Source: a virus (Duplodnaviria; Caudoviricetes). Taken from it: a DNA stretch of 64,000 nucleotides. Below, one piece after another: positions 15,401-50,361 of this stretch. A program made the position numbers and the translations under genes. The notes beneath the pieces are model-generated. The model had not been told where the DNA came from, made no database searches, and worked only from the letters and a program-made list of their open reading frames with translations. Position 1 is the first letter of the stretch; every line of letters begins with the position of its first letter. The stretch lies in IMG/VR virus record IMGVR_UViG_3300022752_000016. One strand, given 5' to 3'.

Positions 15401-18010
15401 CAAGGTACACAAGGCAGACAAGGAGTACAGGGTACACAAGGTGTACAAGGACTACAAGGACTACAAGGAGTACAAGGCACACAAGGCAGACAAGGTGTAC
15501 AAGGTACACAAGGTGTTCAAGGTTTACAGGGAATACAAGGTATTCAAGGTATTCAAGGTACTCAAGGAACTCAGGGAGTGCAGGGGCTTGATGGGTTCGC
15601 AGTAGCCCAAGGAATGCAAGGGACACAAGGCATACAAGGTGTTCAAGGATTACAAGGTAACCAAGGAGTAGCAGGAATACCACAATCTTGGACATTAATA
15701 ACTTCGAGTCAACTCGCAGGGAGTGATACCAGATATATAGCAAATACAAGTGGAGGACCGTTCACATTAACTTTACCAGCCAGTCCAGTTTTAGGACAGG
15801 TAGTTATTGTAACAGATGGAAATAATTGGGCAGCAAATAATTTAACAATTGCAGGTAACGGATCTACAATTCAAGGATCCTATACTGACCTTATTTTAAA
15901 TATACAAGATATTACAGTAGAACTTGTCTATGACGGTACTACATGGTTAGTAACAGCAACATTGGGTCAACGAGGAGTTCAAGGACAAAGTGGAATACAA
16001 GGACTAGATGGTTTTCAAGGTGCACAAGGAACGCAAGGCATACAAGGCAGACAAGGCTTACAAGGTCCTACTGCTGCACAAGGTGCACAAGGAACACAAG
16101 GAGTTCAAGGAACACAGGGCAGACAAGGCTTACAAGGTCCTACTGCTGCACAAGGTGCACAAGGAACACAAGGAGTTCAAGGTACACAAGGTGTACAAGG
16201 CAGGCAAGGCATACAAGGCAGACAAGGATTACAAGGGCCTACAGCATCACAAGGAACACAAGGAACACAAGGAACACAAGGAACACAAGGGTTACAAGGC
16301 AGGCAAGGATTACAAGGGCCTACAGCATCACAAGGAACACAAGGAACACAAGGAACACAAGGGTTACAAGGGCTACAAGGCAGGCAAGGATTACAAGGAC
16401 CTACAGCATCACAAGGAACACAAGGGTTATACGGCATTCAAGGAAATCAAGGTATTCAAGGTATTCCTGGCACAGTAGCAGCACAGGGTATGCAGGGTCT
16501 TCAAGGACTACAAGGAGTTCAGGGAACGCAAGGAACACAAGGATTACAAGGACCTACTGCTGCACAGGGCGCACAGGGAACACAGGGACTACAAGGTAAT
16601 CAGGGGGTACAGGGCAGGCAGGGATTACAAGGTCCAACTGCTGCACAGGGCGCACAGGGAACACAGGGACTACAAGGTAATCAGGGGGTACAGGGCAGAC
16701 AGGGATTACAAGGTCCAACTGCTGCACAAGGTGCACAAGGAACACAGGGATTACAAGGGTTACAAGGTTTGCAAGGATTACAAGGTCGGCAAGGTTTACA
16801 AGGCCCAACTGCTTCACAAGGAACACAAGGTATACAGGGACTTAATGGATTATTTTCAGCACAGGGTACACAAGGATTACAGGGATCAGCAGGAGCAGGT
16901 GGCGGTGGTAACATAAGTGGTCCAGCAAGTGCTAGTGGTAGGGAAATAGCATACTTTACAAGTTCTACAACAATTGACACAGTACCAACTTTAACTTATG
17001 ATCAACCTAATGGTTATATTCAGGTAAAATCGAAGGATTCATTTGATGGCGGTGTGATACAGTTTTACAGTACTGGCAATACAAATTATACAATTTTTGG
17101 GCGTAAAGATACTGGTAGCAATGTAAGTCTTTGGTTACCCAACACAGTAGGCACTACTGGACAAGTATTATCTATTACTTTAAATTCTGGTCCAAGTGAA
17201 GCTCAATTGGGTTGGTCAACTGCGGCAACATACTTTAACACAGGAAATTATAGAATTCCTATTTATGATCCTGATAATTCAAGTTTAAGATTTTATGGAC
17301 CTACCATAGATAGTGATAACGTTATTACAACACGTAATTTTTGGGCTTCAAATACTATAGGTGGGGCAGATAATCCTTACTTAAGAGTTTCTGCACCATC
17401 TGCAAGGACTTATACACAATTTCAAAGAGCCGCAGGTGGCGCAAATACTACACTGTATTTACCGACAGCCAGCGCAAATTCTAGTTACGGTAGCTATTTG
17501 GGTGCAATTGATAGTCAAAATCAACTACAATGGATGTATGGTTTATGGGGCGATGCTGTACGAAGCGATACTACAAGTGCTGACTTTTATTATCCAACTT
17601 GGGTTAGAGACTATTTTAACGGCGCAAATAATATTGTATATATTTCTTCAAGCACTAGTAAGTTTGGTTATAGGCCAAGCTCAGGTACATTACAAGTTAC
17701 TGTATTAACTCAAACTTCTACTATACAAGATAAAGAAAATCTAAGACCTATTACAAATGCACTCTCAACTTTAAATCAATTTAGTACATATTTATATGAC
17801 AGAAAAGATGGGTCAGCCTCAAACGTTCCTGGTGTAATTGCAGAAGAAGTAGCTAATATCTTTCCTGAACTAGTTACTTATACAAGTAATAACATACCAA
17901 CAGGGGTTAACTATACACAATTTATTCCGTTATTAATTGAAGGAATTAAAAATCTAACAGAAAAAGTTGAGTTATTGGAAACTGAAATTAATAATCTTAA
18001 AAATCAGTAA
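12413..18010 (+). CDS. Collagen-like long tail fibre with C-terminal peptidase S74 intramolecular chaperone
   Basis: Baseplate-anchor-like N-terminus '[18 protein letters not shown]'; ~1100 residues of Gly-X-Gln; C-terminal '[10 protein letters not shown]...GVIAEEV...PELV...VNY...LLIEGIKNL' with Ser and Lys five residues apart and a terminal coiled coil. Confidence 0.9.
13190..16885 (+). repeat. 9-bp-period coding tandem repeat (CAAGGnnnn) in two blocks, 13190-15670 and 15965-16885
   Basis: Visible CAAGGTACA/CAAGGACTA/CAAGGTGTA units with higher-order repeats, e.g. 81-bp units starting at 16550 and 16631 with a third, partial copy at 16712. Confidence 0.95.
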
Positions 18011-24406: not shown

Positions 24407-24916
24407 ATGAAGGTAGATAAATATGGTCAAGTTATACTAAATGAAGAGGACTTGTGTGAAGTATTATATACAAATCCAAACCATACTTTTGTAAAAGTTT
24501 TTACAGAAACTTTAATAAAAATTCCTAATTTCGTACATACTGGTAGTTTTATACCTTCTATAAATAACGATAATACAATAGAAGAATTTGATTATAAATT
24601 ACAAAAAAATTATTATATACCAGAAAAATATAAAAATTTTGATATTAAAAACCATATCAAAAATTTATGTAACAACAATTTAGAATTACATAGGGTAGAA
24701 TTAGAATTAAAGTTGTTTGAAAAATATGATATGATTAATTTGTTAATTTATTTAAAATACTTAGTAGATATTACAAAACTTCACAATATTGTTTTGGGTG
24801 TAGGCAGAGGCAGTAGTGTTGCTAGTTTTGTATTATACTTGCTAGGAATTCATAAAATAAATTCATTAAAATATAATTTATCAATAAATGAATTTTTTAA
24901 AGGAGAAAATTTATGA
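24407..24916 (+). CDS. Short DnaE (Pol III alpha)-like fragment protein lacking the catalytic aspartates
   Basis: 'ELKLFEK...YLKYLVD...GVGRGSSVASFVLYLLGIHKINSLKYNL..EF' matches the DnaE GRGS region; ends before the PDIDxD motif. Confidence 0.75.
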   Translation: MKVDKYGQVILNEEDLCEVLYTNPNHTFVKVFTETLIKIPNFVHTGSFIPSINNDNTIEEFDYKLQKNYYIPEKYKNFDIKNHIKNLCNNNLELHRVELELKLFEKYDMINLLIYLKYLVDITKLHNIVLGVGRGSSVASFVLYLLGIHKINSLKYNLSINEFFKGENL

Positions 24917-31683: not shown

Positions 31684-32469
31684 ATGAATTATTATAATAT
31701 ATTAGGCATAGACAAAAAAGCTACGCCTGATGACATAAAAAAAGCATATAGAAGATTAGCTAGCCAGCATCATCCTGATAAAGGAGGAGATACTTCCAAA
31801 TTTCAAGAAATACAAACAGCATATGAAACTTTATGCGATCCTGTTAAAAAACAACAATATGATAATCCTGTGCATATAAGAGGACAAAATGGATTTGAAT
31901 TTAATTTTAATCCAGACAATATAAATGATATTTTGCATCAATTTGGTGGAATACATAATATTTTTAATCAAAATAGAGGGCTGCAAACTTTTAGAACTAT
32001 AGTACAACTATCTTTAATGGATGCTTATCAAGGGGTTAAAAAAGCTTTGCAAATACACACAAATACTGGATCAAGTATAATAAGTATTGATATACCAAAA
32101 GGCATCATGTCAGGACAGCAAATTAAATATGAACAATTGATTCCCAATGCCAATTTATTGGTTGAATTTGTAGTACAACCTGATTTACACTATGATAGGC
32201 AAATGCATGATTTGTATTCAAATGTTCCTATTTCTATATTTAAGTTAATAACTGGAACTACTTTGAATTTTACTACAATTTCGGGGAAAATGTTAGAGAT
32301 TGAAGTAAAGCCAATAACACAACCACACATGCAATTAAAATTAATTGGTCAAGGTATGCCTATTATAAATTCTTCTAAATTTGGTGACCAAATACTATTG
32401 CTTAAACCATTTATACCTGATACTATACACAGTGATATAGTAGATATTTTGAATAAACACAAAGAGTAA
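31684..32469 (+). CDS. dnaJ: DnaJ-class co-chaperone (J domain plus C-terminal domain, no Zn finger)
   Basis: 'NYYNILG...DIKKAYRRLASQHHPDKGGD..KFQEIQTAYETL' (HPD motif) and C-terminal 'GQGMP...GDQ'. Confidence 0.9.
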   Translation: MNYYNILGIDKKATPDDIKKAYRRLASQHHPDKGGDTSKFQEIQTAYETLCDPVKKQQYDNPVHIRGQNGFEFNFNPDNINDILHQFGGIHNIFNQNRGLQTFRTIVQLSLMDAYQGVKKALQIHTNTGSSIISIDIPKGIMSGQQIKYEQLIPNANLLVEFVVQPDLHYDRQMHDLYSNVPISIFKLITGTTLNFTTISGKMLEIEVKPITQPHMQLKLIGQGMPIINSSKFGDQILLLKPFIPDTIHSDIVDILNKHKE

Positions 32470-32477
32470 ATATAATT

Positions 32478-34736
32478 ATGAATTCACCTGAAATTGAAAC
32501 CATTATTGAGCAGGCTATAATAGTTGCCAAAGAAAAGCAACATGAATATGTTACTATTGAACATTTATTGTTGGCATTAATTAATTATTATCCATTTAAA
32601 AAATGTTTAAACACATTTAATGTTGATGTAGATGGCTTAGCTAGAGAAATAAACTCATATTTAGATTCTCTAAATGCGATAAAAGTAAATGAAGAGGTTC
32701 AACCTAAAAAAACAAATAGTTTAGAACGTGTAATGAATCGTAGTGTAACCCAAGTTTTGTTTACTGGTCGTAGACAGGTTACAACAATAGACTTATATCT
32801 AAGTATTGCACTTGAAGGTAATAGTCATGCACATTATTTTTTATTAAAATATGGTATTAATAAAACAGAATTTGTACAGCATTGGCAGCGTAATTACAAA
32901 CCTAATGAATATAGTTCAAACTTAACAGAAGTACAAGCTGATGAAATACTTAACGAATATACCACAAACCTAACAAAACTTGCCAAAGCAGATAAACTTG
33001 AGCCTGTAATTGGAAGAACCAAAGAAATTACTGACATTATTCATATATTAGCACGTAGGTTTAAATCCAACGTGCTAATGGTAGGAGATCCAGGTGTGGG
33101 GAAAACTGCTATAGCAGAAGGTATCGCTAATGCTATTGTAAAAAATGAAGTTCCAGATTTTCTAAAAAACTACGAATTATTTAGTTTAGAAATAGGTAGT
33201 TTATTGGCAGGAAGTCGTTATAGAGGTGACTTTGAAGAAAAAGTAAAACATGTTATTGATGCATTAAACACCAAAAAGAAAGCTATTTTATTTGTTGATG
33301 AAGCACACACGATGACGAATAGTGGATCGTCTTCACAAGGGTCCCTAGACTTTGCTAACTTGATTAAACCTGCACTTACTAAGGGAACAATTAAAATAAT
33401 TGCAAGTACAACATGGGAAGAATTTTACGAAAGTTTTGAAAAAGATAGGGCATTTATGCGTAGATTTTATAAAATTAATATAGATGAGCCTAATTATGAA
33501 TCTACAATTAGAATTTTGTCTGGATTAAGTGAAAGATTGAATGATTTTCATAATGTTAAAATTACAGATGATGCTATCCTAGCGGCTGTTGACTCATCAA
33601 CTAGATATATTAATGATAAAAAAAACCCAGATAAGTCAATTGATTTATTGGACGCAGCATGTGCGAAACAACGAGCACTTGGAAATAAGGATTGTGAAAT
33701 TACAAAACAATTAATTTTTGAACAAGTTGAAAAATACACAGGAGTTCCTGCCGATAAATTGAATGGGGATAACTTAGATAAAGTAAATAATCTAGAAGTA
33801 AACATAAAATCAAAGCTGTATGGACAAGATAAAACTGTAGAACAAGTTCTTGAACGAGTTTATATTAGCTTTGCTGGAATAGGTAACGAAACTAAACCAA
33901 TATCAAGTTTTTTATTTTTAGGTCCAACTGGTACAGGTAAAACAGAACTTGCAAAACTTTTAAGTAAGAATCTTGATATGCCCTTACTTAAATATGATAT
34001 GAGTGAATATAGCGAAAAACATAGTGTAAGTTCTCTAATAGGTCCTCCCCCAGGATATGTTGGATTTAATGATAGTCAAGTGCAAGGTGGTAGATTAATT
34101 AGTGATTTAAGTAAAAATCCACATTCTGTTATGTTATTTGATGAAGTGGAAAAAGCTCATCCTGATATTTTTAATATATTTTTACAAATGTTGGATGAAG
34201 GTACCATTACTGGAAGCAATGGAAAAATAGTTAGTTGTAAAAATGCTATTATAATTTTAACTAGTAATTTAGGTAGTGCGGATAGTGAAAAAAATAATAT
34301 TGGTTTTGGTGCACAGGAAAAAACTGGAGAAGATGATAGAGCACTACGTGAATTTTTTAAGCCTGAATTCAGAAATAGATTAGACATGGTTTGTAAATTT
34401 AATAAACTTGATACGTTAGCAATAAAAAAGATTGTGGTAAAATTTGTTAATGCACTTAAAACTACTTTAACAGACAAACATAATATAACTTTTAATTTAT
34501 CAGAACATGTAATTGAATTTTTAGCTAACCAAGGTTATGATAGTAAAATGGGTGCAAGACCATTATCAAGAAAAATTGATGAATTGATTCGTGTACCATT
34601 AAGTAAAAAAATTGTATTTGAAAAAATAAAAAATGCTAATGTAATGGCAGTTCTAATAGATGGTAATATTGTATTTGAAACAAATAAAAAAGTTAATGCT
34701 AAAATAGGAGACGATGGAGTCATCGAGGTATTTTAA
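32478..34736 (+). CDS. clpA: ClpA-like AAA+ unfoldase (Clp protease ATP-binding subunit)
   Basis: Clp N-domain; two NBDs ('GDPGVGKT'/'LFVDEAH' and 'GPTGTGKT'/'LFDEVEKAH'); 'GSRYRGDFEE'; ClpP-docking 'IGF' loop; 'PEFRNRLD'; 'MGARPL'. Confidence 0.92.
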   Translation: MNSPEIETIIEQAIIVAKEKQHEYVTIEHLLLALINYYPFKKCLNTFNVDVDGLAREINSYLDSLNAIKVNEEVQPKKTNSLERVMNRSVTQVLFTGRRQVTTIDLYLSIALEGNSHAHYFLLKYGINKTEFVQHWQRNYKPNEYSSNLTEVQADEILNEYTTNLTKLAKADKLEPVIGRTKEITDIIHILARRFKSNVLMVGDPGVGKTAIAEGIANAIVKNEVPDFLKNYELFSLEIGSLLAGSRYRGDFEEKVKHVIDALNTKKKAILFVDEAHTMTNSGSSSQGSLDFANLIKPALTKGTIKIIASTTWEEFYESFEKDRAFMRRFYKINIDEPNYESTIRILSGLSERLNDFHNVKITDDAILAAVDSSTRYINDKKNPDKSIDLLDAACAKQRALGNKDCEITKQLIFEQVEKYTGVPADKLNGDNLDKVNNLEVNIKSKLYGQDKTVEQVLERVYISFAGIGNETKPISSFLFLGPTGTGKTELAKLLSKNLDMPLLKYDMSEYSEKHSVSSLIGPPPGYVGFNDSQVQGGRLISDLSKNPHSVMLFDEVEKAHPDIFNIFLQMLDEGTITGSNGKIVSCKNAIIILTSNLGSADSEKNNIGFGAQEKTGEDDRALREFFKPEFRNRLDMVCKFNKLDTLAIKKIVVKFVNALKTTLTDKHNITFNLSEHVIEFLANQGYDSKMGARPLSRKIDELIRVPLSKKIVFEKIKNANVMAVLIDGNIVFETNKKVNAKIGDDGVIEVF

Positions 34737-38587: not shown

Positions 38588-38595
38588 GATAAATA
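38588..38595 (+). promoter_or_regulatory. Late promoter-like GATAAATA
   Basis: After the terminator, upstream of the internal-protein operon. Confidence 0.6.
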
Positions 38596-38617
38596 CTCAT
38601 TATAACAGGATTTGGCT

Positions 38618-39265
38618 ATGAGAGCAACAGATTTAATGGAAATGGGTACTGTAGCAGGGGCATTTGCTACAGTAGCGAAGCCTATGGGCGAAACACAAAA
38701 ACGTGGTGTAAAAGTTGCTGGGTTACAACCAGCAGAAAAAGTTATGACTGGGAAGTCAAAGAAAAAAGGCCCATATCAAAATAGTATAAATGAAGGCAAA
38801 ATGAAAGATTTGTCATTAGACCTACGCAGTGATAAGGATGGTTTATCTGATATGGAATTTAAAAAGAAATATGGTAAAACCAAAGAAGAAATGCGTAAAT
38901 CTCTTAAAGCGAATAAAGAGAAAAAAGTTAATGAAGCTGAATTAAGTGAAGATGATATTATACTAGTGCCAGGGCAAGGTAGGAAATTTAAGACTGGTTT
39001 TGTCCCAAAAGGAGAAAGTAGAGTTGACCACGAAGTAGAAATGGCACGTAGTGATTTATTTCAAACAGCTAAAAATGCCCAACAAGTATATAAGTTAATA
39101 AAAAATTTAAGTGAAGATGATGGATTAGAAGGTTGGGTACAAGAGAAAATAATCAAAGCAAACGATTATTTAAATTCAGTACGTGAATATTTAGAACATA
39201 AAACTTATATGCAAGAAATGTCAGGTGGTGTTATTGCAGCAGGTGGCGTTGGCGAGTCAAAATGA
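38618..39265 (+). CDS. Putative capsid internal protein (modular)
   Basis: Starts MRATDLME|; INE|G, VNE|A and MQE|M sites separate basic modules. Confidence 0.65.
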   Translation: MRATDLMEMGTVAGAFATVAKPMGETQKRGVKVAGLQPAEKVMTGKSKKKGPYQNSINEGKMKDLSLDLRSDKDGLSDMEFKKKYGKTKEEMRKSLKANKEKKVNEAELSEDDIILVPGQGRKFKTGFVPKGESRVDHEVEMARSDLFQTAKNAQQVYKLIKNLSEDDGLEGWVQEKIIKANDYLNSVREYLEHKTYMQEMSGGVIAAGGVGESK

Positions 39266-42200
39266 GTTCTATAATAAAAGGCTTAGTCAACGAGGATGAA
39301 GCTGCTGGTATGAGGTGGGAAGAGGAACTTATGGATGCTTGGGCACCCTATGCTGCCAAGCATATGGCTAAAGTCGTAAAGCAAGCTTTCAACAATCTTT
39401 ATCCAAATGTAAAATTAAAAGTTTGGGCGGAAGCTGAAGGAGTCTCAGCAACCACTGATCCAGCCAGTGTTAATGTCAAAGCCGATGTGTTTGGACAATA
39501 TGGAAAAAAAGATTGGGAATGTAATTTCTTTTGTGGACCTTTATATAATGTAGAGGATGATCGTAAATATCTTGAACTAATGGTTGAAGATGCCGCTAGC
39601 GGAAGTTATCCTGGTGTATGGAGGATAATACTTAGTGAATGGAAAAAATGGGCTAGTAGCCAATTAAAAAAAACTGGTGCTGATGATGTTTGTTTCAGTG
39701 TAGATGAAGACATGAGCGGCGGTGCGTGGGGGAAAGTTGCTGGTGCTGTTGGTATTAAATTTATAGCACGTGACCTAGATGAAGGTGTGGCGGAAGGCTC
39801 AGGTCCAATAAGTAAAACCAAAGCACTTAACGCACTAAGAAAAGAACTAATGAATTCATATGAGTATATGAAATGTGGGAATTTGGAAGAATTTAAACAA
39901 AGATTACAATGGCTCAGTGAAGGAATGTTGAAGAATCACATGACTGGTGGAAAAACAACAGCAATTAACCAGAAAGAAATTGAACTATATAAGGAATATC
40001 GTAAAAAACGAGAACAGATTCAACAAGGATTTACATCGCAAGGTGTGGCGGAAGGCTTAACCCCGAGTATTATACACAAATTAGCAGACCGTAAAGGAAT
40101 CAAATGGGACAACGAGCCAAGTTTTCTTAAACTTACAAAAAGATTAACAGGCAAAGAACACCTAGACGATTTGGATCAAACAGAGTTACAAAAAGTCAAA
40201 CAACATTTAGAAAAGCAAGATGTGGCGGAAGCGTTAAATTATGATAGAGAACCTTTGTATCATGCTACATTAAAAGCATTTGAGCCTAGTATCATAAAAT
40301 CAGGACTACTACCAGGCGGTAATTTAAGAATGTTTGACTGGAGTGACAAAAAGTATGTATACCTTAGTAACTATCCTGACATAGCACGAGATTTTGTTGA
40401 TCCTGGAGTAATAGAACCAAGTCAAGAACACGAAGACCAAATATTTAAATTAATGAAACAGGGCGGTGTTATATTTAAAATAGATCAAAATAAATTAGAC
40501 AGAAAGTTATTAATGTCTGATCCACATTTTCAAAGTGACGCAGATGATGGTGCAGAAACTTATGTATATAGTGGTATAATTTCACCAAGTGCTATAATAG
40601 GAAAAAAGTATTTTAGAATAGATGAATCAGTTGGGGTAGAAATGGTATTGGACAAGGTGAATGGTATGGCTGAAAGTAATAGATTATATAAGTATCATCA
40701 AAAATTAAGAAAACAAGCTGGATTACCTGATCCACAAGAATACTTAAGAATGCAGAAACAAAAATTAATTGAACTAATATTACTTAATGATCCTAACCAA
40801 GAATTAAACGTATTAGAATTAGCAACAATACCTGAGTTAAAAGAAATATATCAAATGATTAAAAAAGTTGATGAAGATAATACATATCAATTTGCTGCTG
40901 AAAAGACTCCAGTAATTAGTCCATACGTAGGCGTTAAAGATAATCAATTTCGTGGTGCGATTGGTGAAGGTATAAGAAGTATGTTTGAAGAACCCAACCA
41001 TAGTCCAACTGATGCAGGGTACCAAGAAGGTGGTTGGAGAGTAATGTATAAAGATGAGATGAATGAAGATTTACGCAAATGGTTTAAAGAGAAATGGGTA
41101 AGATTTGGACCAGATGGTAAGATTCGTGGTGCATGTGCTAGGGGTGATGATAGTGAGGGCAAGCCAAAATGTTTGCCACAAAGTAAAGCACATAGCTTAG
41201 GCAAGAAGGGTCGTGCTAGTGCTGCTTCTAGAAAGCGTAGGGAAGATCCTAACCCAGAGCGTAGCGGCAAGGCAATAAATGTTGCTACAAAAAAGAAAAA
41301 ATCCAATGAGGGAAGTAATATGTATGAAGCAAGTGATATCTCAGGTTTATTGGCAGCTAGTCATTTAAATAAATCATTTATTATAACTGCTATTACAGCA
41401 GAAGGACAAAAAAAGAAATTTCGTGTAAAAGCACAGAATGAAAGAGTTGCTAAAGAAAAGTTTCTAAAGCACCATAGTATGGCAAAAATACTTGATATAA
41501 AAGAAGAAAATATGCAAGAAATGCAAGGTTCTTCAAACGTTACTGATTTAAATATTAAACAATTAGCTACTATTAGTGATGAAGCATTAGACAAAGCATA
41601 TGGTTATGGTCGTAGTACTCCAGGAAATTCATTTGGTTGGCAAGCTAATTTAATGTCAGCTGCCTATGCTAAAAAAATGATAGATGCTGGTATAACGGAT
41701 ATTGAAAAAATAGCGGACGCAATTCACAAAGGTTGGAATGTTACCGCACAAAAGTTTGTGCAAAATCCTGATCAGTTTGATGATACAGAAAAGTTACGTC
41801 AAGCAGGAAAGCTTGATGCCAAGTTACAACAACGTGCAAAATTAATGAAAATTAATTATTCCCAACTTGACAATGATGAACAAGAAAAAGACCGTGTAGT
41901 TGCTAGAGCATTATTAAAAGCTATAAAAGGTCAACAAAATGTGACTGAAGAAAAATGCCCACATTGTAGTGGTCCAATGTTTGAAATGAGTTTAATGAAT
42001 GAAAAGAAAGATGCATGTTATTACAAAGTTAAAAGTCGCTATAAAGTATGGCCATCAGCATATGCCAGTGGTGCTTTAGTTAAGTGTCGTAAAAAAGGTG
42101 CTAAGAATTGGGGCACTAAATCTGAAAGTTCAATTATGAAGGGTTTACAAAGTGAAGGTCAGATTTATAGCACTGGTGGGGGAGCAGGACAAGCGCAACG

Positions 42201-42321
42201 TTATTATACTCCAAAAGATAATTTAGGTGAAGAACAACTGGATGAATTAAAATGTTGGCCTGGTTACAAGCGTAAAAAAGGAGTTAAAGCAGGAGCCTCG
42301 GGTAGTTGTGAGAAGATATAA
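39262..42321 (+). CDS. Mosaic 1019-aa polyprotein; putative capsid-internal/injected effector array
   Basis: Unrelated modules joined at VAE|G, VAE|A, MAE|S, VDE|D, MNE|D and similar sites; contains ART-like and RyR-like modules and small Cys/basic modules. Confidence 0.75.
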   Translation: MSSIIKGLVNEDEAAGMRWEEELMDAWAPYAAKHMAKVVKQAFNNLYPNVKLKVWAEAEGVSATTDPASVNVKADVFGQYGKKDWECNFFCGPLYNVEDDRKYLELMVEDAASGSYPGVWRIILSEWKKWASSQLKKTGADDVCFSVDEDMSGGAWGKVAGAVGIKFIARDLDEGVAEGSGPISKTKALNALRKELMNSYEYMKCGNLEEFKQRLQWLSEGMLKNHMTGGKTTAINQKEIELYKEYRKKREQIQQGFTSQGVAEGLTPSIIHKLADRKGIKWDNEPSFLKLTKRLTGKEHLDDLDQTELQKVKQHLEKQDVAEALNYDREPLYHATLKAFEPSIIKSGLLPGGNLRMFDWSDKKYVYLSNYPDIARDFVDPGVIEPSQEHEDQIFKLMKQGGVIFKIDQNKLDRKLLMSDPHFQSDADDGAETYVYSGIISPSAIIGKKYFRIDESVGVEMVLDKVNGMAESNRLYKYHQKLRKQAGLPDPQEYLRMQKQKLIELILLNDPNQELNVLELATIPELKEIYQMIKKVDEDNTYQFAAEKTPVISPYVGVKDNQFRGAIGEGIRSMFEEPNHSPTDAGYQEGGWRVMYKDEMNEDLRKWFKEKWVRFGPDGKIRGACARGDDSEGKPKCLPQSKAHSLGKKGRASAASRKRREDPNPERSGKAINVATKKKKSNEGSNMYEASDISGLLAASHLNKSFIITAITAEGQKKKFRVKAQNERVAKEKFLKHHSMAKILDIKEENMQEMQGSSNVTDLNIKQLATISDEALDKAYGYGRSTPGNSFGWQANLMSAAYAKKMIDAGITDIEKIADAIHKGWNVTAQKFVQNPDQFDDTEKLRQAGKLDAKLQQRAKLMKINYSQLDNDEQEKDRVVARALLKAIKGQQNVTEEKCPHCSGPMFEMSLMNEKKDACYYKVKSRYKVWPSAYASGALVKCRKKGAKNWGTKSESSIMKGLQSEGQIYSTGGGAGQAQRYYTPKDNLGEEQLDELKCWPGYKRKKGVKAGASGSCEKI
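39782..40234 (+). repeat. 18-bp direct repeats AAGGTGTGGCGGAAGGCT at module junctions (39782-39799, 40040-40057; variant AAGATGTGGCGGAAGCGT at 40217-40234)
   Basis: Two exact copies and one 15/18 copy, GC-rich against an AT-rich background, all in the same frame (G/D-V-A-E-G/A). Confidence 0.9.
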
Positions 42322-42322
42322 T

Positions 42323-42733
42323 ATGAGAGCAAAAGAGTTTATTACCGAAACAATAGTAAAACCAGTAGATCCTATCACTAAAATTCAGCGTGATAAACCA
42401 CGTCAACCACCAACACATTTAAGTAAATTAAAAAAGCCAAGTGAACCTGCTGCTAAAATAAGTTTTGCACATGAATTAGAAAAATACAAACGATTACCTG
42501 AGGGCAATGATGAAGAATTTCACACAGGTGGTAGTCCAGGAATTCCTTTCCCTACAACATATGAACAAGAATATAAACCATTTACGCAAAAAGGACAAAG
42601 AAGAATTACAGCAATGACTAATGAAGAACAAGTTGATGAAAAATGGAGTAATAAGTATAAGCGTAGTATAAATTGTAATAATCCAAAAGGGTTTAGTCAA
42701 CGTGCTCACTGCCAAGGGAGGAAAAAGAAATGA
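42323..42733 (+). CDS. Putative capsid internal protein
   Basis: Starts MRAKEFITE|T; C-terminal basic Cys module 'EKWSNKYKRSINCNNPKGFSQRAHCQGRKKK'. Confidence 0.7.
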   Translation: MRAKEFITETIVKPVDPITKIQRDKPRQPPTHLSKLKKPSEPAAKISFAHELEKYKRLPEGNDEEFHTGGSPGIPFPTTYEQEYKPFTQKGQRRITAMTNEEQVDEKWSNKYKRSINCNNPKGFSQRAHCQGRKKK

Positions 42734-43676: not shown

Positions 43677-44372
43677 ATGAGAGCAACAGAATTTATTTTT
43701 GAAAGAAAAAGATCAAAAAGAAAATCTTTAAGAAAATACTTTTTTCCAGGCTTTTCTTATTATGGTTTTTCAGGGTCAGGAGAAGACAGTGGAGGTGACG
43801 GAGGAGGTGAAAGCATTTATGAAACACCTGAATTAGAGTTAGCGAAACGTTTACCTAGTTTATCCAAACATGATTATAATACAATTGATAAATTAATGCG
43901 TGAAATTAGTAAAAAACATAGTATTACTGGAAAAGCTTTACATAACTTGTTTGTAAAGAAATATCATAAAACACCAGATGATTGGATAAAAAATAAATTA
44001 GATGAAACCAGTACCGATAATACTATCACTGATGATGTACAAAAATTTGGCCAATGGGCTAGTAAAATACTTAAATTACAGAATCCACCTGCAATTAAAT
44101 TAAGTCAGGACACTGGAGAGGCACAAACTCATCATCATACAGGAAGACATGTGGATGGTGAAGATAGTGTTTGGGTATATGTAAGAAATAGAAATTTAGT
44201 TGATATTCTTAGAACAGTATTTCATGAACTTGTACATGTAAGACAAGGTGAATTGGGTAAGATTAAACCTGGTTCTAGTTATCCAGGTAGTCCAATTGAA
44301 GCCGAGGCCGATGTTTTAGCAGGGAAGTATATTAAAATATACGGTAAAGAAAACCCACATATTTTCCAATAA
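43677..44372 (+). CDS. Putative capsid internal protein with C-terminal zincin-like (HExxH) domain
   Basis: Starts MRATEFIFE|; 'LRTVFHELVHVRQ...IEAEAD' (HExxH plus downstream E). Confidence 0.7.
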   Translation: MRATEFIFERKRSKRKSLRKYFFPGFSYYGFSGSGEDSGGDGGGESIYETPELELAKRLPSLSKHDYNTIDKLMREISKKHSITGKALHNLFVKKYHKTPDDWIKNKLDETSTDNTITDDVQKFGQWASKILKLQNPPAIKLSQDTGEAQTHHHTGRHVDGEDSVWVYVRNRNLVDILRTVFHELVHVRQGELGKIKPGSSYPGSPIEAEADVLAGKYIKIYGKENPHIFQ

Positions 44373-44672
44373 TTAATTACTTTTTATTTCATCAAATGAT
44401 TTAATAATTTCTAATTGAGAAGGATCATGTTTTTTATTATATGGAACAGGAAGTGATTGCCATTCTTGCTCACTAATATCACAAGCTATAACCACCTGAT
44501 ACTTATGTCCATCACTTGTATATAGTTCAATAGTATCCAGTCCAATTACTGATTTACTTGTTTTTATTAATGCTTCACCTAAGGCTCTGAGTGCCTGTTT
44601 TTCTCCAACAATATATGCTCTACCATTTGGTTCTGCATGATTATGCATATGTAATCTTGATTTAACTTGCAT
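44373..44672 (-). CDS. Hypothetical protein
   Basis: 99 aa; overlaps the DnaE-like stop on the same strand. Confidence 0.65.
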   Translation of the reverse strand: MQVKSRLHMHNHAEPNGRAYIVGEKQALRALGEALIKTSKSVIGLDTIELYTSDGHKYQVVIACDISEQEWQSLPVPYNKKHDPSQLEIIKSFDEIKSN

Positions 44673-46389
44673 TTAATAAATCTTTCAAACTTAGTCGTTT
44701 ATGTTTCTTAACTGTAACATATTCTGTGTTGTTTTTGTAGCCTAATTTACCCACACCCCATACTATTGGGTAATCATGTAAACTAACCGCTTTATCTAAT
44801 ATAACATCAATATAACGATTATTACCTGTTCCTAAGGTAACGAATGTAATATATTCTTTTGGTTTACTTTTAAATACACGATAATTGGCTACTAGTCCAC
44901 AAAACTCTACCTCACCTGGTTTCCTCAACTCAGTACAAAAAGGTAAAAACTTTTTACTATGCCAATGACCCTGTGTCATTAATTCATTGATTTCATTGCC
45001 TTCGTACACACTTGTTATTGCCCCTGCCAATTTGGCCTCATGATGGTATACCCAACGGCTATAACTACCTTGGCAATGTTTCAAAACAGCACGCCAAAAC
45101 TTTTCAGGATTATGTGCTTTTTGATACGCAATTGCCCATATCAAACGTCCTAAATTAATCGCATGTGCCCTACATAATCCAAAATTACTTAATTCTGTTA
45201 ATGCATAAAAAACTTCTTCTTTGTTTTCATGGTTACCTATCAAATCCATAAACTCAAATATTTTTTCTTCATTACGTTTAGCAAAGGCACGACGCCACAT
45301 ATCTGCTTCATATTGGTTACAATCTAATAGTTTACTAATTAACATGATTGCATCATCTTCAAACACAATAGTATTATCAAATGTGTCTTTGCTCCAATCA
45401 CGGAAAAAACTGGCTTTGCGACGACCTTGTGTGGCAACTGGTCTAATTAATGCTGTAGCTAATACACAATCTTCACGTTTGGTTGGTTTTATAGCCCTAA
45501 ATAATCTACGCATTGCAGGACTCTCTGCCTGTGTGACTCCCAAAACGTTACCGCTACGTAATAACTCAGCAGTTTTTTCATCATATTCAGGATAGTCCAA
45601 CAAGTTTTTTGTAGGGTCTATTTCATAGAGTTGAGATAGTCCTCGATTGGATAATATGTCAATTTTAAAATGTTCTAAATCTTCAATTTCATATTTGTCT
45701 AATAGTATTTGGTTTTCTGCATTGATTAAACTTTTCGGGACAGCACGATCAAATATTAATATACCACCACAATGTTTACTGATACAACGTTTTTTACCTA
45801 ATAATTTATTAACCAAGCGTTTTGCTTCATCAGCAAATTCTGGTACAACTTTGTCTAAATCTATATTTCTAGGTAATCTACCCTTCGCACCATATCGTTT
45901 TGCTGCCTCACGTATGGCACTTTTCTCTTTATATGTAACATAATTGCTTACCCGTGCTGATTGACCTTTCCAATGATTAAAGATACGATTCATCACTGTT
46001 TCTTGTTGATAATGCGGGAAGTCTAAATCAATGTCTGGTAAATCATCACGTTTTGGGTTCATAAAACGTGCTAATGGTATTTTTTCTTTAATTGGATCAA
46101 CATCACTAATACCAAGTAACCAACATAATAAACTACTTCCTGCACTACCACGAGTCATATGTGGTATATCTTTAGTTAATTCTAATATTTCTACTACACG
46201 TAAGAAGTGTTTTGCGAAACCTAATTTTGCTATGAGTTCTAGTTCTTCTTCTAACCTATTTTCGTATTCTATGTCGTTTGGTAAATTTCTTGTAAATTTC
46301 TTTATTAATATTTCTAGTTCTTTATATCTACTTTCCATATTTGTGCCTATTGTATGTGCCATAAGTTTTTTATTTATTTGGTAAAACAA
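44662..46389 (-). CDS. dnaE: Miniature family-C DNA polymerase (DnaE core plus OB fold, no PHP domain); true start may be 46362 or 46338
   Basis: 'TRGSAGSSLLCWLLGI..VDP', catalytic 'PDIDLDF', 'SKHCGGILI', 'KIDILSNRGL', 'GVTQAES', 'FGLCRAHA' and a C-terminal OB-like region. Confidence 0.85.
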   Translation of the reverse strand: MFYQINKKLMAHTIGTNMESRYKELEILIKKFTRNLPNDIEYENRLEEELELIAKLGFAKHFLRVVEILELTKDIPHMTRGSAGSSLLCWLLGISDVDPIKEKIPLARFMNPKRDDLPDIDLDFPHYQQETVMNRIFNHWKGQSARVSNYVTYKEKSAIREAAKRYGAKGRLPRNIDLDKVVPEFADEAKRLVNKLLGKKRCISKHCGGILIFDRAVPKSLINAENQILLDKYEIEDLEHFKIDILSNRGLSQLYEIDPTKNLLDYPEYDEKTAELLRSGNVLGVTQAESPAMRRLFRAIKPTKREDCVLATALIRPVATQGRRKASFFRDWSKDTFDNTIVFEDDAIMLISKLLDCNQYEADMWRRAFAKRNEEKIFEFMDLIGNHENKEEVFYALTELSNFGLCRAHAINLGRLIWAIAYQKAHNPEKFWRAVLKHCQGSYSRWVYHHEAKLAGAITSVYEGNEINELMTQGHWHSKKFLPFCTELRKPGEVEFCGLVANYRVFKSKPKEYITFVTLGTGNNRYIDVILDKAVSLHDYPIVWGVGKLGYKNNTEYVTVKKHKRLSLKDLLNAS

Positions 46390-47366: not shown

Positions 47367-47656
47367 ACAACGATATAATTTTAAACATATATTCTTGGGT
47401 AAAACAGGATTGGAAATCTAATCCTTTAAGATTTTTTATAGAATTATTGGCTTGGACTATAAGTATTGGTTGTGCCTTGATTATGGCACTAACTGTACCT
47501 AACCCTCCTCTTATGATATTATATCCATTGTGGATATTAGGATGTATACTGTATGCTTGGGCATCATACTCAAGAAAATCATTTGGTATGTTGGGAAATT
47601 ATTTGTTACTTACTTCAGTTGATATTATTGGATTAGCAAGGTTATTAATACAATGA
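47363..47656 (+). CDS. Small membrane protein (about 3 TM)
   Basis: Three hydrophobic stretches in 97 aa. Confidence 0.7.
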   Translation: MNNDIILNIYSWVKQDWKSNPLRFFIELLAWTISIGCALIMALTVPNPPLMILYPLWILGCILYAWASYSRKSFGMLGNYLLLTSVDIIGLARLLIQ

Positions 47657-50361
47657 GTTATATAGACGCCATACACGATAGAGATAGTGATAAAATTTAT
47701 GTAGTAGAACGTACTACAGATGGCAAACGTACCTATAAAGAGTTTCCAGCTAATTATACATTTTACTATAGTGATCCTAAAGGTAAATATCGCAGCATAT
47801 ACGGAGATACTGTAGCCAAATTTAGCACAAGAAAACGTAGTGAGTTTGAAAAAGAACGACGGATTCATGCAAATAAAAAATTATTTGAAAGTGATATTAA
47901 CGTAGTTTATCGATGCCTTTCGGAAAACTATCTTAAAGTAGAAGCTCCAAAATTACACACTGTGTTTTTTGATATTGAAGTAGACTTTGATCCTGAAAAA
48001 GGATTTAGCCCAACAACTGATCCATTTAATCCTGTCACTGCAATTAGTTTGTATTTGGATTGGTTAGATCAGTTAGTTACCCTATGTATTCCACCAAAAC
48101 ATATGAGCCAAGAAACGGCCAATGATTTGACTAAACACATGAACAATACTATGCTATTTGATAATGAAAAAGAAATGTTTGAAACATTCTTTCAACTTAT
48201 TGAAGATGCAGATGTATTGACAGGTTGGAATAGTGAAGGATACGATATACCATATATGGTTAATCGTGTAACACGTATAATGAGTAAGGATGATACCAGA
48301 AAATTCTGTTTACTTGGACAAACTCCTAAAATGCGTACATATGAACGATTTGGAAAAGATGAGCAAACTTATGATTTAGTTGGTCGTATTCATATGGATT
48401 ATTTGCAGTTATATAAGAAGTATAACTATGAATCACGCCATAGTTATGCACTAGATTTTATTGGCGAAATGGAAGTAGGAGAAAACAAAACAAAATATGA
48501 AGGTACATTAGATCAATTGTACAACAAAGATTTTGTCACGTTTTTAGAATATAATCGCCAAGATACAATGTTACTTGTTAAAATTCATAATAAACTTAAA
48601 TTCTTAGATTTAGCCAATGCACTAGCGCATGAAAATACTGTATTGATTCCCACAGTAATGGGTAGTGTGGCTATGATTGAAATGGCTATTATGAATGAAG
48701 CACATGAACGTGGTTTAGTAGTACCTGATAAAAAACGAAAGGAACATAGTGATGAACAACAAGCAGCAGGTGCCTTTGTTGCTACGCCCAAAAGGGGTAT
48801 ACACGAATACGTCGGAGCGGTCGATATCAACAGTCTATACCCGTCAGCAATCCGCGCTCTTAACATGGCGCCAGAAACCATTGTTGGACAAATCAGACAA
48901 ACTCTTACAGACCAATACATGAAAGAAAAGGGCAATAAACTTGCCCGTGAAAAAAAATATTATAAAGATGGTGATGATGATGTCACTGGAGCGATTCTAT
49001 GGGAAGGATTATTTGGTAGTTTAGAATATACTGCTATAATGAATCGTGAACGTGGAACTATGCTTACACTAGATTATGAAGATGGACGAAGTGTAGAAAT
49101 GAGTGCCTGTGAAATATGGAAACTTGTATTTGATAGTCATAAACCATATATTCTCAGCGCAAATGGTACTATCTTTAGACATGACCAAGAAGGTGTGATC
49201 CCAGGATTATTAACACGTTGGTACAGTGATCGTAAAGTTATGCAGAAAAAATTAAAAGAAAGCACAACTGATGAAGATAAAGAATACTGGGATAAAAGAC
49301 AACTTGTTCGTAAGATTTTACTAAACTCAGCATATGGTGCATTGTTAAATGAACATTGTCGTTTTTATGATAAACGTATTGGTCAAAGTGTTACATTAAC
49401 AGGTCGGCAAATCGTTAAGCATATGATGAGTACCATTAATGAAGTTATTACTGGTGAATACAATCACGAAGGTTCAGCAATTGTATATGGTGATACTGAC
49501 AGTTGCTATTTCAGTGCATACCCAATTCTAAAATCACAAATAGAAAATACGGAAGTAGACTGGAATAAAGACCTATGTATTCAATTATACGACAATATTG
49601 CTGAACAAGCGAATCAATCGTTTCCTAGTTTTATGGAACGTGCATTTCATTGTCCAAGAAAAAATGGAGAAATTATTGTAGCTGGTCGTGAATTGATTGG
49701 TGATCGTAGCATTTTTATTACTAAAAAACGTTATGCAATTAATATTTACGATAAAGAAGGTAAGCGTAAAGACGTAAATGGGAAACAAGGTGATATCAAA
49801 GCAATGGGACTTGACTTAAAACGTGCAGATACTCCGAAATTCATACAAGAATTTTTAATGCATATTTTAGAAATGGTACTAGCTGGTAAACAAAAAGAAG
49901 ATATCATAGAAAAAATTAAAACGTTTAAAAATATATTATCTGAGCGTGATAGTTGGTTGAAGGGTACACCTAAATCAGTAAACAAGCTTACATACTATGG
50001 TGAATTAGAAAAAAACAGTAAAACAGGCAAAGTAAACATGCCTGGACATGTTCGTGCTGCACTTAACTACAACTATCTACGTAAGGCTAATAGTGATAAC
50101 TACAGCATGAAAATCGTAGATGGGATGAAAGTTGTGGTATGCAAATTAAAAAGTAATCCATTAGGGTTTACAAGTATTGCATATCCCACAGATGAGTTAC
50201 GTTTGCCTAAATGGTTTTGTGAATTACCATTTGATGATATTGAGATGGAACGTGGTTTAGTAGATGAAAAGATTGATAACCTATTAGGTGTGTTAAATTG
50301 GGACTTAAGACGTAGTACAGATACTACAACAACATTTGATGAGTTGTTTACATTTGGTTAA
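47653..50361 (+). CDS. Family B DNA polymerase (gp43-like)
   Basis: Exonuclease 'FFDIEV', 'GWNSEGYDIPY', 'YNRQD'; polymerase 'VDINSLYPS', 'KILLNSAYG', 'YGDTDS', 'KKRYA'. Confidence 0.97.
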   Translation: MSYIDAIHDRDSDKIYVVERTTDGKRTYKEFPANYTFYYSDPKGKYRSIYGDTVAKFSTRKRSEFEKERRIHANKKLFESDINVVYRCLSENYLKVEAPKLHTVFFDIEVDFDPEKGFSPTTDPFNPVTAISLYLDWLDQLVTLCIPPKHMSQETANDLTKHMNNTMLFDNEKEMFETFFQLIEDADVLTGWNSEGYDIPYMVNRVTRIMSKDDTRKFCLLGQTPKMRTYERFGKDEQTYDLVGRIHMDYLQLYKKYNYESRHSYALDFIGEMEVGENKTKYEGTLDQLYNKDFVTFLEYNRQDTMLLVKIHNKLKFLDLANALAHENTVLIPTVMGSVAMIEMAIMNEAHERGLVVPDKKRKEHSDEQQAAGAFVATPKRGIHEYVGAVDINSLYPSAIRALNMAPETIVGQIRQTLTDQYMKEKGNKLAREKKYYKDGDDDVTGAILWEGLFGSLEYTAIMNRERGTMLTLDYEDGRSVEMSACEIWKLVFDSHKPYILSANGTIFRHDQEGVIPGLLTRWYSDRKVMQKKLKESTTDEDKEYWDKRQLVRKILLNSAYGALLNEHCRFYDKRIGQSVTLTGRQIVKHMMSTINEVITGEYNHEGSAIVYGDTDSCYFSAYPILKSQIENTEVDWNKDLCIQLYDNIAEQANQSFPSFMERAFHCPRKNGEIIVAGRELIGDRSIFITKKRYAINIYDKEGKRKDVNGKQGDIKAMGLDLKRADTPKFIQEFLMHILEMVLAGKQKEDIIEKIKTFKNILSERDSWLKGTPKSVNKLTYYGELEKNSKTGKVNMPGHVRAALNYNYLRKANSDNYSMKIVDGMKVVVCKLKSNPLGFTSIAYPTDELRLPKWFCELPFDDIEMERGLVDEKIDNLLGVLNWDLRRSTDTTTTFDELFTFG

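Follow-up and report, generated by a model that had tools for sequence, protein, structure and literature searches.

How does a single open reading frame (ORF) come to consist of unrelated protein modules joined by copies of one short DNA sequence, and what becomes of its product? This question is raised by the virus record IMGVR_UViG_3300022752_000016, in which we analysed a stretch of 64,000 nt (33 % G+C over its whole length), hereafter termed the window. On the plus strand, the open frame at 39262..42321 specifies a modular polyprotein of 1019 aa, P0001, in which an 18-nt linker is repeated at the first module junctions. Taking all lines of evidence together, we lean towards a cargo polyprotein, the cassettes of which are shuffled at the linker and which would be cut by the prohead protease and injected.

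A coding repeat conserved as DNA

A first-pass annotation of this DNA had described the 18-mer AAGGTGTGGCGGAAGGCT as a repeat reading (G/D)VAE(G/A), and we found it exactly at 39782–39799 and 40040–40057, and with three mismatches (15/18) at 40217–40234, the three copies being read in frame as GVAEG, GVAEG and DVAEA. No further copy is present anywhere in the window, for which shuffled sequences gave a chance expectation of 0.02 copies. The identity of the copies at synonymous positions had been called unexpected for so AT-rich a genome, and the codon usage of the window bears this out: GTG makes up 9.5 % of Val codons, GCG 5.9 % of Ala codons and GGC 11 % of Gly codons, such that the probability of finding GGT GTG GCG GAA GGC, given the peptide GVAEG, is 2.4 × 10−4.

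The same choice of rare codons is found throughout the family of related polyproteins, in which the linker has the DNA consensus (C/G/A)AA GGT GTG GCG GAA GGC and the peptide consensus (K/E)(Q/E/K)-G-V-A-E-G. QGVAE and GVAEG are, by a wide margin, the most recurrent within-protein 5-mers of this family, with GVAE seen 194 times compared with 2.5 expected. The exact 16-mer AAGGTGTGGCGGAAGG was found at a minimum of 175 sites on at least 120 IMG/VR contigs, and 160 of the 175 listed sites lie in open GVAE frames of ≥ 200 aa, with unrelated flanks. When one ascertaining site per ORF was dropped (a leave-one-out count), 91 of the 131 GVAE sites read GGT GTG GCG GAA, for which ∼0.5 % would be expected; GCG was used at 86 % of these sites, compared with 7.6 % in the same ORFs, and GGT at 128 of the 131, although GGC and GGA are common codons. 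At three loci found by protein similarity alone, 14 of 19 GVAE sites were canonical (again ∼0.5 % expected) and 18 of the 19 carried GCG. As controls, two synonymous 16-mers composed of commoner codons occurred at 111 and 71 IMG/VR sites, seven of each being in frames with two or more linkers; for the canonical 16-mer, this was the case for at least 126 of 175 sites.

Moreover, the third positions of conserved four-fold codons were 37–55 % identical in modules vs 70–85 % in linkers, and in an unbiased subset of shared junctions 13 of 15 linker third positions were identical, compared with 50 % in the flanks. The variants observed are one-step derivatives of the canonical DNA, as in GVSE (GTG TCG), DVAE (GAT GTG GCG) and SVAE (AGT GTG GCG). 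Judged by these comparisons, the linker is conserved as DNA, with its rare codons, across at least 120 phage contigs.

Modules and their exchange among relatives

At least 1,457 related metagenomic proteins, from a search confined to proteins of 560–1783 aa, each cover 8–30 % of P0001 at 60–90 % identity, sharing one to three modules with it in differing orders. Using the alignment breakpoints of 119 relatives on P0001 as module borders we delimited about eleven modules (M1–M11), which confirms that the ORF is built as a string of unrelated modules, and all three VAE linkers coincide with such breakpoints. The order found is M1-M5-...-M6-M11-...-M7-M9 in P0004, M5-M6-M4-M7-M10/M11-M9-M10 in P0005, M9-...-M4-...-M6 in P0008 and M6-M9-M8 in P0013, and P0024 contains M6 twice. 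Rather than a fixed module order without the DNA repeat, the family thus has permuted orders together with conserved linker DNA, and the comparison of related contigs that the first-pass annotation had suggested, namely whether the same linker flanks different modules, was positive: module content varies and the junctions are conserved.

Of the blastn alignments between contigs, 429 stop no more than 12 nt from a linker whereas 26 run across one (94 % stopping); at control offsets of 60–150 nt, 5–23 % of alignments end. At syntenic loci (DnaJ-ClpA ... cytidylyltransferase ... polyprotein - Dps ... PolB) we found the polyproteins P0012 and P0071, which have only 9–16 % of P0001 in common. A megablast search with the ORF against 50,697 phage records returned no match, and tblastn matches were restricted to aa 600–1016, in small genes of cultured cyanomyoviruses. 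Module 2 is likewise a free-standing gene, of 73–89 aa, in 11 viral contigs. As modules are separate genes in some phages and fused in others, gene boundaries and in-frame junctions are interchangeable.

Variants of the locus itself were also found. P0002 is 96 % identical to P0001 over M4–M11 and is missing M2 and M3; its junction, DLDEGVAE|ALNY, is an exact hybrid of the left half of linker 1 and the right half of linker 3, as seen in the protein sequence and in contig joints only. Among joints in independent lake metagenomes, those from 39801 to 40213/40214 (two runs) correspond to the loss of M2 and M3, one from 39803 to 40038 to the loss of M2, and one from 40030 to 40215, with a shorter side of 255 nt, to the loss of M3, such that every pairwise combination of the three VAE linkers occurs naturally. 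A contig joint in run X8, from 41511 to 41947, connects NMQE|M to NVTE|E and deletes exactly module 8. Furthermore, loose contig ends cluster at 39782–39800, 40056–40057 and 41059, and contig joints and ends at linker 1 reach 39803. The proposal that the repeat acts as a recombination handle has therefore held up, with homology breaks, deletion variants and one hybrid linker all mapping to linker coordinates. On this evidence, the modules are very probably evolutionary cassettes that recombination within a linker of 15–18 nt adds, removes and swaps.

Reading along the plus strand, P0001 begins with the leader MSSIIKGLVNE (39262..39294), which is of the type S-x-I-(L/M)-K-G-L-x-x-E, ends in hydrophobic-x-E, and is found at the start of ∼35 of 120 relatives; in L001 and P0002 a HAD-like module is inserted between leader and M1. 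Module 1 (aa 12–174; 39295..39783) is acidic and of 18 kDa. It is followed by linker 1, read (E)GVAEG (39782..39799), the basic module 2 (aa 180–259; 39799..40038) and linker 2, read (Q)GVAEG (40040..40057), both linkers having the canonical 18-mer. Module 3 (aa 266–318; 40057..40215) is missing in the L001 orthologue and in the run X8 strain, and in L006 is fused to an HExxH module. Linker 3, read (Q)DVAEA (40217..40234; 15/18), has the DNA GAT GTG GCG GAA GCG, one or two steps from the canonical sequence, and leads into module 4 (aa 325–466; 40234..40659), behind which stands the diverged linker GMAE|S (GGT ATG GCT GAA AGT; 40663..40677). Module 5 (aa 473–598; 40678..41055) has a possible sub-boundary, KVDE|D, at 40864–40878, and the junction EMNE|D that follows (41056..41070) is where 59 alignments start and where, at 41059, a loose contig end was seen in four runs. 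Module 6 (aa 603–684; 41068..41313; isoelectric point, pI, 10.4) is of the WFKEKWVRFGPDG...PNPER type and is a small gene too in cyanomyoviruses; the junction behind it, NMYE|A (41317..41331), is SNEGVAEG at the same position in relatives. The basic module 7 (aa 690–749; 41329..41508) is separated by NMQE|M (41509..41523) from module 8 (aa 754–892; 41521..41937), an all-helical domain that ends at (Q)NVTE|E (41938..41952), a decayed QGVAEG. Module 9 (aa 897–954; 41950..42123) combines a Cys4 ribbon with a DUF5872-like basic motif, module 10 (aa 955–989; 42124..42228) opens with a second leader-like motif, SSIMKGLQSE, and module 11 (aa 990–1019; 42229..42318) consists of EQLDE|L and a Cys-rich basic tail. 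Seven of the eleven modules have a pI of 8.7–10.4 and a mass of 3–16 kDa, like T4 internal proteins.

The first-pass annotation had listed hydrophobic-x-E sites as the later junctions, and most of these stand: GMAE|S, VDE|D, MNE|D, MYE|A, VTE|E and LDE|L match breakpoints, and breakpoint support for IGE|G is weak. LMNE|K (aa 911–915), however, is not a junction, as it lies inside the zinc-ribbon/DUF5872 module, and two junctions had been missed, NMQE|M (aa 750–754) and SSIMKGLQSE|G (aa 956–965). The peptide S-x-I-(L/M)-K-G-(L/I) recurs inside P0001 at 42127–42156 (SESSIMKGLQSE), and many relatives end in the same S-x-I-(L/M)-K-G peptide at their extreme C-terminus (...KESSIMKGLKK-stop). As its DNA is not conserved, it may be a signal that acts at the peptide level, in targeting or in cleavage, or else the remnant of a gene start that became fused. 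Other stereotyped junction peptides in P0002–P0120 are (L/V)NEFAP followed by Gly/Asp-rich runs, and EEQLDE(L/K), whilst KKKSNEG precedes the linker at junctions of these proteins; each of the recurrent junction peptides contains hydrophobic-x-E.

Module 1 (39305–39787) has a contig depth 5–15 times that of the rest of the gene in lake metagenomes and RNA libraries, and two metatranscriptome runs cover no other part of the gene. In these runs, module 1 reads on after DLDEG into YRRQVENFAD, an L002-type context after a sigma-70 region-4-like module. The deeper coverage and the other context suggest that module 1 also sits in a far more abundant phage.

The modules had been described as effectors, and this is supported for one of them, module 4; most are without a recognizable family, and Pfam searches of P0001 and eight relatives gave almost nothing above cut-off, leaving most modules as orphans. 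The AlphaFold2 (AF2) model of module 4 has a predicted local distance difference test (pLDDT) value of 90.1 and matched Tpt1 in Foldseek (E-value 6 × 10−5; template modelling, TM, score 0.49), followed by DarT1, and a profile built from 63 homologues and compared with the PDB again found Tpt1 (1 × 10−5), plus PARP10. No Pfam ADP-ribosyltransferase (ART) model reached its cut-off for P0001. In the 63 homologues His13 is nearly invariant and Tyr115 invariant, and these two only of the catalytic H-Y-(E/D/Q) residues were assigned; in total, 99 homologues of the module were found, mostly free-standing and of 110–150 aa. As modelled, module 4 is an ART fold of the Tpt1/KptA-DarT-PARP branch, with ADP-ribosyltransferase activity predicted.

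Module 8 was likewise modelled well (pLDDT 91.6), and Foldseek against the PDB returned no match below an E-value of 0.001, the best TM score being 0.50, to a bacterial ryanodine receptor (RyR) chimera. Its likeness to RyR domains is weak (Atlas lead score 0.78, below the reliable range), as is the Atlas lead for a GNAT likeness of module 1, also below that range. The models of modules 4 and 8 have low-confidence termini, as expected of exposed linkers. Module 9 scored 19 bits against DUF5872 (PF19197), under the Pfam gathering cut-off of 27.5, and its relative P0008 reaches 29.1; it is likely a divergent member of this family by sequence, and also matches PHROGs 727, 3477 and 38880 and small cyanophage genes. 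In the relatives, precomputed Pfam assignments include ParB-like (ParBc), nucleotidyltransferase, sigma-70 region 4 and LysM domains, and GNAT and cytidylyltransferase domains are also present. A cultured, tractable relative is the very basic multi-module protein of 589 aa in Synechococcus phage S-8S29 (OQ504979.1; L149 3596–5365), which is encoded right after the small terminase gene and has M6-, M9- and M11-like modules and no GVAEG linker.

Predicted processing and packaging, and the alternatives

The pattern G[VIM][AS]E stands at 16.7 % of 826 distinct module boundaries and in 1.1 % of control windows; at the remaining boundaries, [VILMF]xE is present in 63.7 %, compared with 18.1 % of controls. 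At the junction after module 8, where the window has GQQNVTEE, relatives have GQQGVAEG, GEQGMAEG, GQQDVAEA, GDQGVTEE, GQQDMSEA, NIAES, QLDEK or LNEFAP; what these variants retain is a hydrophobic P3 residue and a Glu in P1, whilst the remainder changes. The T4 prohead protease gp21 prefers Leu or Ile at P3. In all three capsid-bearing related records (G004, G006 and G009) a Peptidase_S77 gene lies beside portal, core, scaffold and Gp23 genes, and G006 and G009 have canonical linkers as well. The capsid proteins of these three records have LL(Q/S)E|SSAG at the T4 gp23 cut position, and acidic core proteins adjoining the protease in related records contain MVAE|A and PVAE|S. When the S77 protease of G006 was modelled in complex with a segment of a G006 polyprotein containing two linkers, the score was 0.00 and the partner pLDDT 32, which carries no weight for or against cleavage. 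Two leader types, S-x-I-L-K-G-L-x-x-E in P0001 and M(R/K)xxE(F/I)(I/V)xE in two neighbouring genes, together account for about half of the relatives, and the second of these we take to resemble the capsid-targeting sequence of T4 internal proteins (IPs). It is established that T4 gp21 and its relatives in giant phages cleave after Glu behind a short motif (PMC9026906, PMC5694885, PMC10052503). With reasonable probability, the linkers are thus predicted to be gp21-type prohead protease sites; that the polyprotein is packaged and injected is a prediction that we narrowly favour.

In the mechanism that we propose, the polyprotein would be a chain of about eleven independently folding modules of 30–160 aa, many of them basic, synthesized late and taken into the prohead core. 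Peptidase_S77 would cut at QGVAE|G, at the decayed forms derived from it and at LNE|FAP, QLDE| and SSIMKGLxxE|, in each case after Glu in hydrophobic-x-Glu, and the cut pieces would be small internal proteins that leave with the DNA, as do T4 IPI–III and Alt. The DNA conservation of the linker would most likely reflect rapid junction turnover: as only intact linkers cross over in frame, young junctions would be canonical, and old ones would decay whilst keeping hydrophobic-x-E. Synonymous and tolerated non-synonymous variants, at ∼30 % each, are in keeping with such neutral decay from a master sequence. For T4-type recombination, homology of < 50 bp suffices, and it already shuffles PeSL (early promoter and stem-loop) cassettes (PMC2839356).

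As to its setting, gene content and sequence similarity identify the source of the window as a freshwater jumbo myovirus of the T4 superfamily, closest to the Atu_ph07/Phosso/RaK2 group. The window encodes a tail sheath, tail tubes, a T4-type PolB, a clamp loader, a DnaJ-ClpA pair and a Dps-like protein, and the nearest relatives of PolB and sheath are those of Sinorhizobium phage Phosso, Agrobacterium phage Atu_ph07, RaK2 and PA5oct (43–49 % aa identity), the closest cultured ones being at 47–49 %; these phages represent jumbo-phage group 2.2 of Iyer et al. (2021; PMC7824862). Seven metagenome runs of freshwater, lake or 'marine' origin, drawn from four studies, contain the polyprotein gene almost complete. 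It is the second gene of a unit beginning with GATAAATA (38588..38595, plus strand), a T4-late-promoter-like motif that stands 24 nt ahead of the unit's first gene. This motif has 11 copies on the plus strand of the window and none on the minus strand, and eight of them (at 650, 7958, 9318, 12387, 29942, 29981, 38588 and 43664) stand 9–51 nt upstream of gene starts, mostly of structural genes, including those at 676 (adaptor), 9344, 12413 (tail fibre) and 29993 (virion protein), and also of the gene at 43677. From its distribution, GATAAATA is probably the late promoter of this phage group and a variant of T4 TATAAATA.

Upstream of the polyprotein, the first gene of this unit (38612..39265, plus strand; 217 aa) has the leader MAMRATDLME and a stop codon that overlaps the polyprotein start as ATGA, and in L003 a DUF5872-type module is joined to its homologue in one fused gene. 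Downstream, the gene at 42308..42733 (plus strand; likely start 42323) has the leader MRAKEFITE, and its C-terminal 79 aa are the last module in 41 of 120 listed related polyproteins. The gene at 43677..44372 (plus strand) has its own copy of GATAAATA, the leader MRATEFIFE and a C-terminal HExxH domain that is zincin-like as judged from its sequence motif; its product is a possible alternative processing protease or a possible cargo protein. A DnaJ gene and a full-length two-ring ClpA gene are paired a few kilobases upstream of the polyprotein locus and are kept in three related phages (31684–34736 of the window, 17976–21064 of L326 and the 251-kb contig of P0012). AAA+ proteins of the ClpA kind could transfer proteins into heads, as suggested by Iyer et al. 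(2021; PMC7824862), and a functional tie between this pair and the polyprotein is possible.

Elsewhere in the window, a PolIII-alpha-like (DnaE-type) gene of 575 aa lies at 44662–46389 (minus strand), and a fragment-like DNA-polymerase match of 169 aa at 24407–24916 (plus strand) is present in addition to the complete T4-type PolB at 47653–50361. The collagen-like tail fibre gene (12413–18010; 1865 aa) has 32 copies of CAAGGTGT (Q-G-V) on one strand and long shadow ORFs on both strands, such as 13167–15749 (minus; 860 aa). A Chi-like role for the linker was considered and rejected, as linker sub-words are not over-represented outside the ORF and the excess of CAAGGTGT is that of the collagen-like tail fibre gene. 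Neither head genes nor a prohead protease gene are found in the 64-kb window. In G007 (IMG/VR; 342,865 bp), which CheckV rates as 99 % complete, neither a Gp23 capsid gene nor a prohead protease was found either; as the capsid gene is also missing, the head module is not on that contig and the missing protease is uninformative. CheckV completeness seems unreliable for this phage group, and true genomes may exceed 350 kb.

A number of points weigh against a cargo polyprotein that is cleaved and packaged. Of its eleven modules, one has an assignable fold, and its gene sits between metabolic and replication genes, outside the head module; with no head genes in the window, the gp21-type protease is seen in related contigs only. 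The P0001 leader MSSIIKGLVNE is unlike the T4-like MRAxEFIxE of the neighbours, and SSIMKGL is also found internally and C-terminally. Linkers are naturally Glu-rich, and so part of the hydrophobic-x-E enrichment could be compositional. RNA libraries cover module 1 alone, and from another phage context. With regard to turnover, the junction shared by the window and L001 stays canonical with flanking four-fold sites at ∼50 % identity, which turnover by itself may not explain, and a test of whether canonical junctions are younger gave a weak trend (8.1 vs 12.2 spanning proteins) in a confounded data set. Finally, both linker cleavage and virion presence are predictions from sequence.

Amongst the alternatives, an uncleaved multidomain 'polyvalent' protein, in which the modules act tethered and QGVAEG is a flexible spacer and recombination joint, is unlikely but fares as well as any. 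It would agree with the generally polar, Glu-rich nature of linkers, and some polyvalent proteins, such as the N4 virion RNA polymerase (PMC5512222), are packaged unprocessed. A spacer would not, however, readily account for the persistence of hydrophobic-x-E whilst the linker decays in both DNA and protein, nor for its enrichment at junctions other than GVAE, which is 3.5-fold relative to control windows taken from the same proteins; that many modules are separate small genes elsewhere, interchangeably with in-frame junctions, also speaks against a need for tethering.

We similarly regard it as improbable that the linker DNA is selected directly, either as a nuclease or recombinase site that mobilizes cassettes or as an RNA signal such as a GUG-GCG translational pause. 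The conservation of third positions at shared junctions, where flanks are near saturation, and the almost exclusive use of GGT point in this direction, as does a length of 15–18 nt, which is short for ordinary homologous recombination. Yet nearly all copies of the motif are in frame and within long ORFs (the 160 of 175 listed sites in frames of ≥ 200 aa), its synonymous and tolerated non-synonymous variants are similarly common, and its sub-words are not spread over the genome in the manner of Chi sites. As to length, T4-type recombination needs < 50 bp, and PeSL shuffling proceeds without a known dedicated enzyme (PMC2839356). In a bolder version, which we also hold to be rather unlikely, the linker would be the attachment site of a dedicated in-frame cassette exchange, with a phage enzyme excising and inserting module plus linker, perhaps via circles, such that aquatic giant phages re-deal a pool of injected anti-host modules and the same site is later cut by the protease; this would be the protein-domain counterpart of the integron or of PeSL mini-circles.

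Somewhat more doubtful is processing by another enzyme outside the head, either the HExxH zincin or a host Glu-specific protease, with the pieces acting in the producing cell. Iyer et al. (2017; PMC5512222) predicted that polyvalent proteins are processed by zincin (MPTase) domains, an HExxH protein is encoded 1.4 kb downstream, an HExxH module is fused to M3 in L006, and the head module does not include the polyprotein gene. A zincin module is missing from most polyproteins of the family, however, and T4-type prohead proteases are characterized by cleavage behind the Glu of hydrophobic-x-Glu; the S77 protease occurs together with the linkers in G006 and G009, virion genes have the late-promoter-like motif too, and leaders resembling capsid-targeting sequences are found on the neighbours and on many relatives. 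A chance repeat or assembly artefact is refuted, for although control 16-mers also occur 70–110 times in IMG/VR, only seven per control, against at least 126 of 175 canonical sites, are in multi-linker frames, 0.02 copies were expected in the window, and the gene is nearly whole in seven runs from four studies.

Significance and comparison with known systems

We conclude that the feature is genuine and common among aquatic giant phages, and it has apparently not been described as such before; we found no paper on a GVAEG linker in the phage literature. If the cargo polyprotein is as we propose, domain shuffling in these phages would be channelled by a coding linker that ensures in-frame, cleavable products, amounting to an evolvability device at the level of protein domains, beside the gene-level PeSL cassettes. 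Abundant freshwater jumbo phages would then carry large, fast-changing sets of small proteins delivered before phage gene expression, a rich and mostly orphan reservoir of candidate anti-defence and host-takeover factors, and the QGVAEG linker with its DNA would provide a simple search handle for listing such cargo in metagenomes. It would also yield a testable prediction of prohead protease cleavage specificity for an uncultured phage group, and the linker might offer a natural template for packaging several proteins in T4-type capsid vectors.

Junction motifs at which modules are swapped are known from polymorphic toxins, where VENN of CdiA and PxxxxDPxGL of Rhs mark the border between constant and variable parts and serve as the recombination point. 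The Rhs motif is also a proteolytic site, cleaved autocatalytically. CdiA and Rhs proteins have one junction each, swap the C-terminal toxin only and belong to bacterial secretion systems rather than to phage head cargo.

With regard to processing, phiKZ, 201phi2-1 and SPN3US (PMC5694885, PMC10052503, PMC9026906) also have gp21-related proteases that cut many head proteins after Glu, at x-x-E motifs and often at several sites per protein, and they eject large sets of proteins. The motif cut in these phages is (S/A/G)-x-E, however, the cuts mostly remove propeptides, and neither cassettes nor a DNA-conserved linker have been reported for them. In architecture, P0001 resembles the polyvalent proteins of Iyer, Burroughs, Anand, de Souza and Aravind (2017; PMC5512222), which combine unrelated domains in one polypeptide and are mosaic: with about eleven modules in permuted orders, it falls within the 2–15 unrelated domains and mosaic architectures by which that class is recognized. 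Some of the domain types may also correspond, namely the ART fold of module 4 and, among the relatives, the ParB-like, nucleotidyltransferase, sigma region 4 and GNAT domains, and delivery with the DNA is predicted in both cases. In contrast, PMC5512222 proposes autoprocessing by zincins and describes no conserved linker, whereas the modules seen here are much smaller, mostly orphan and separated by one DNA-conserved linker that resembles a prohead-protease site.

The predicted pieces would share still other traits with the IPI–III and Alt proteins of T4. Those T4-superfamily proteins are small, non-essential, in many cases basic and very diverse, and they include an ART (Alt; cf. module 4); they have hydrophobic-x-Glu leaders, a gp21-type protease in the lineage and late expression, all three of which are predicted here as well. 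The ART of module 4 is of the Tpt1/DarT/PARP (H-Y) type, whilst T4 Alt is of the R-S-E type. T4 IPs and Alt are packaged in the core, cleaved by gp21 and injected (PMC9958956, PMC9026906, PMC3012670); they are separate genes with one N-terminal cut each, compared with about eleven modules per ORF and predicted internal sites in the polyprotein. Finally, the PeSL cassettes described by Arbiol et al. (2010; PMC2839356) are also short repeats that flank variable units in T4-superfamily phages, with crossovers inside them giving rise to chimeric repeats. A PeSL is, however, an intergenic early promoter and stem-loop of ∼100 bp that shuffles whole genes, whereas the linker described here is 15–18 nt long, lies inside the reading frame, always in one frame, and shuffles protein domains; being coding and in frame, it works like a PeSL but is not one.

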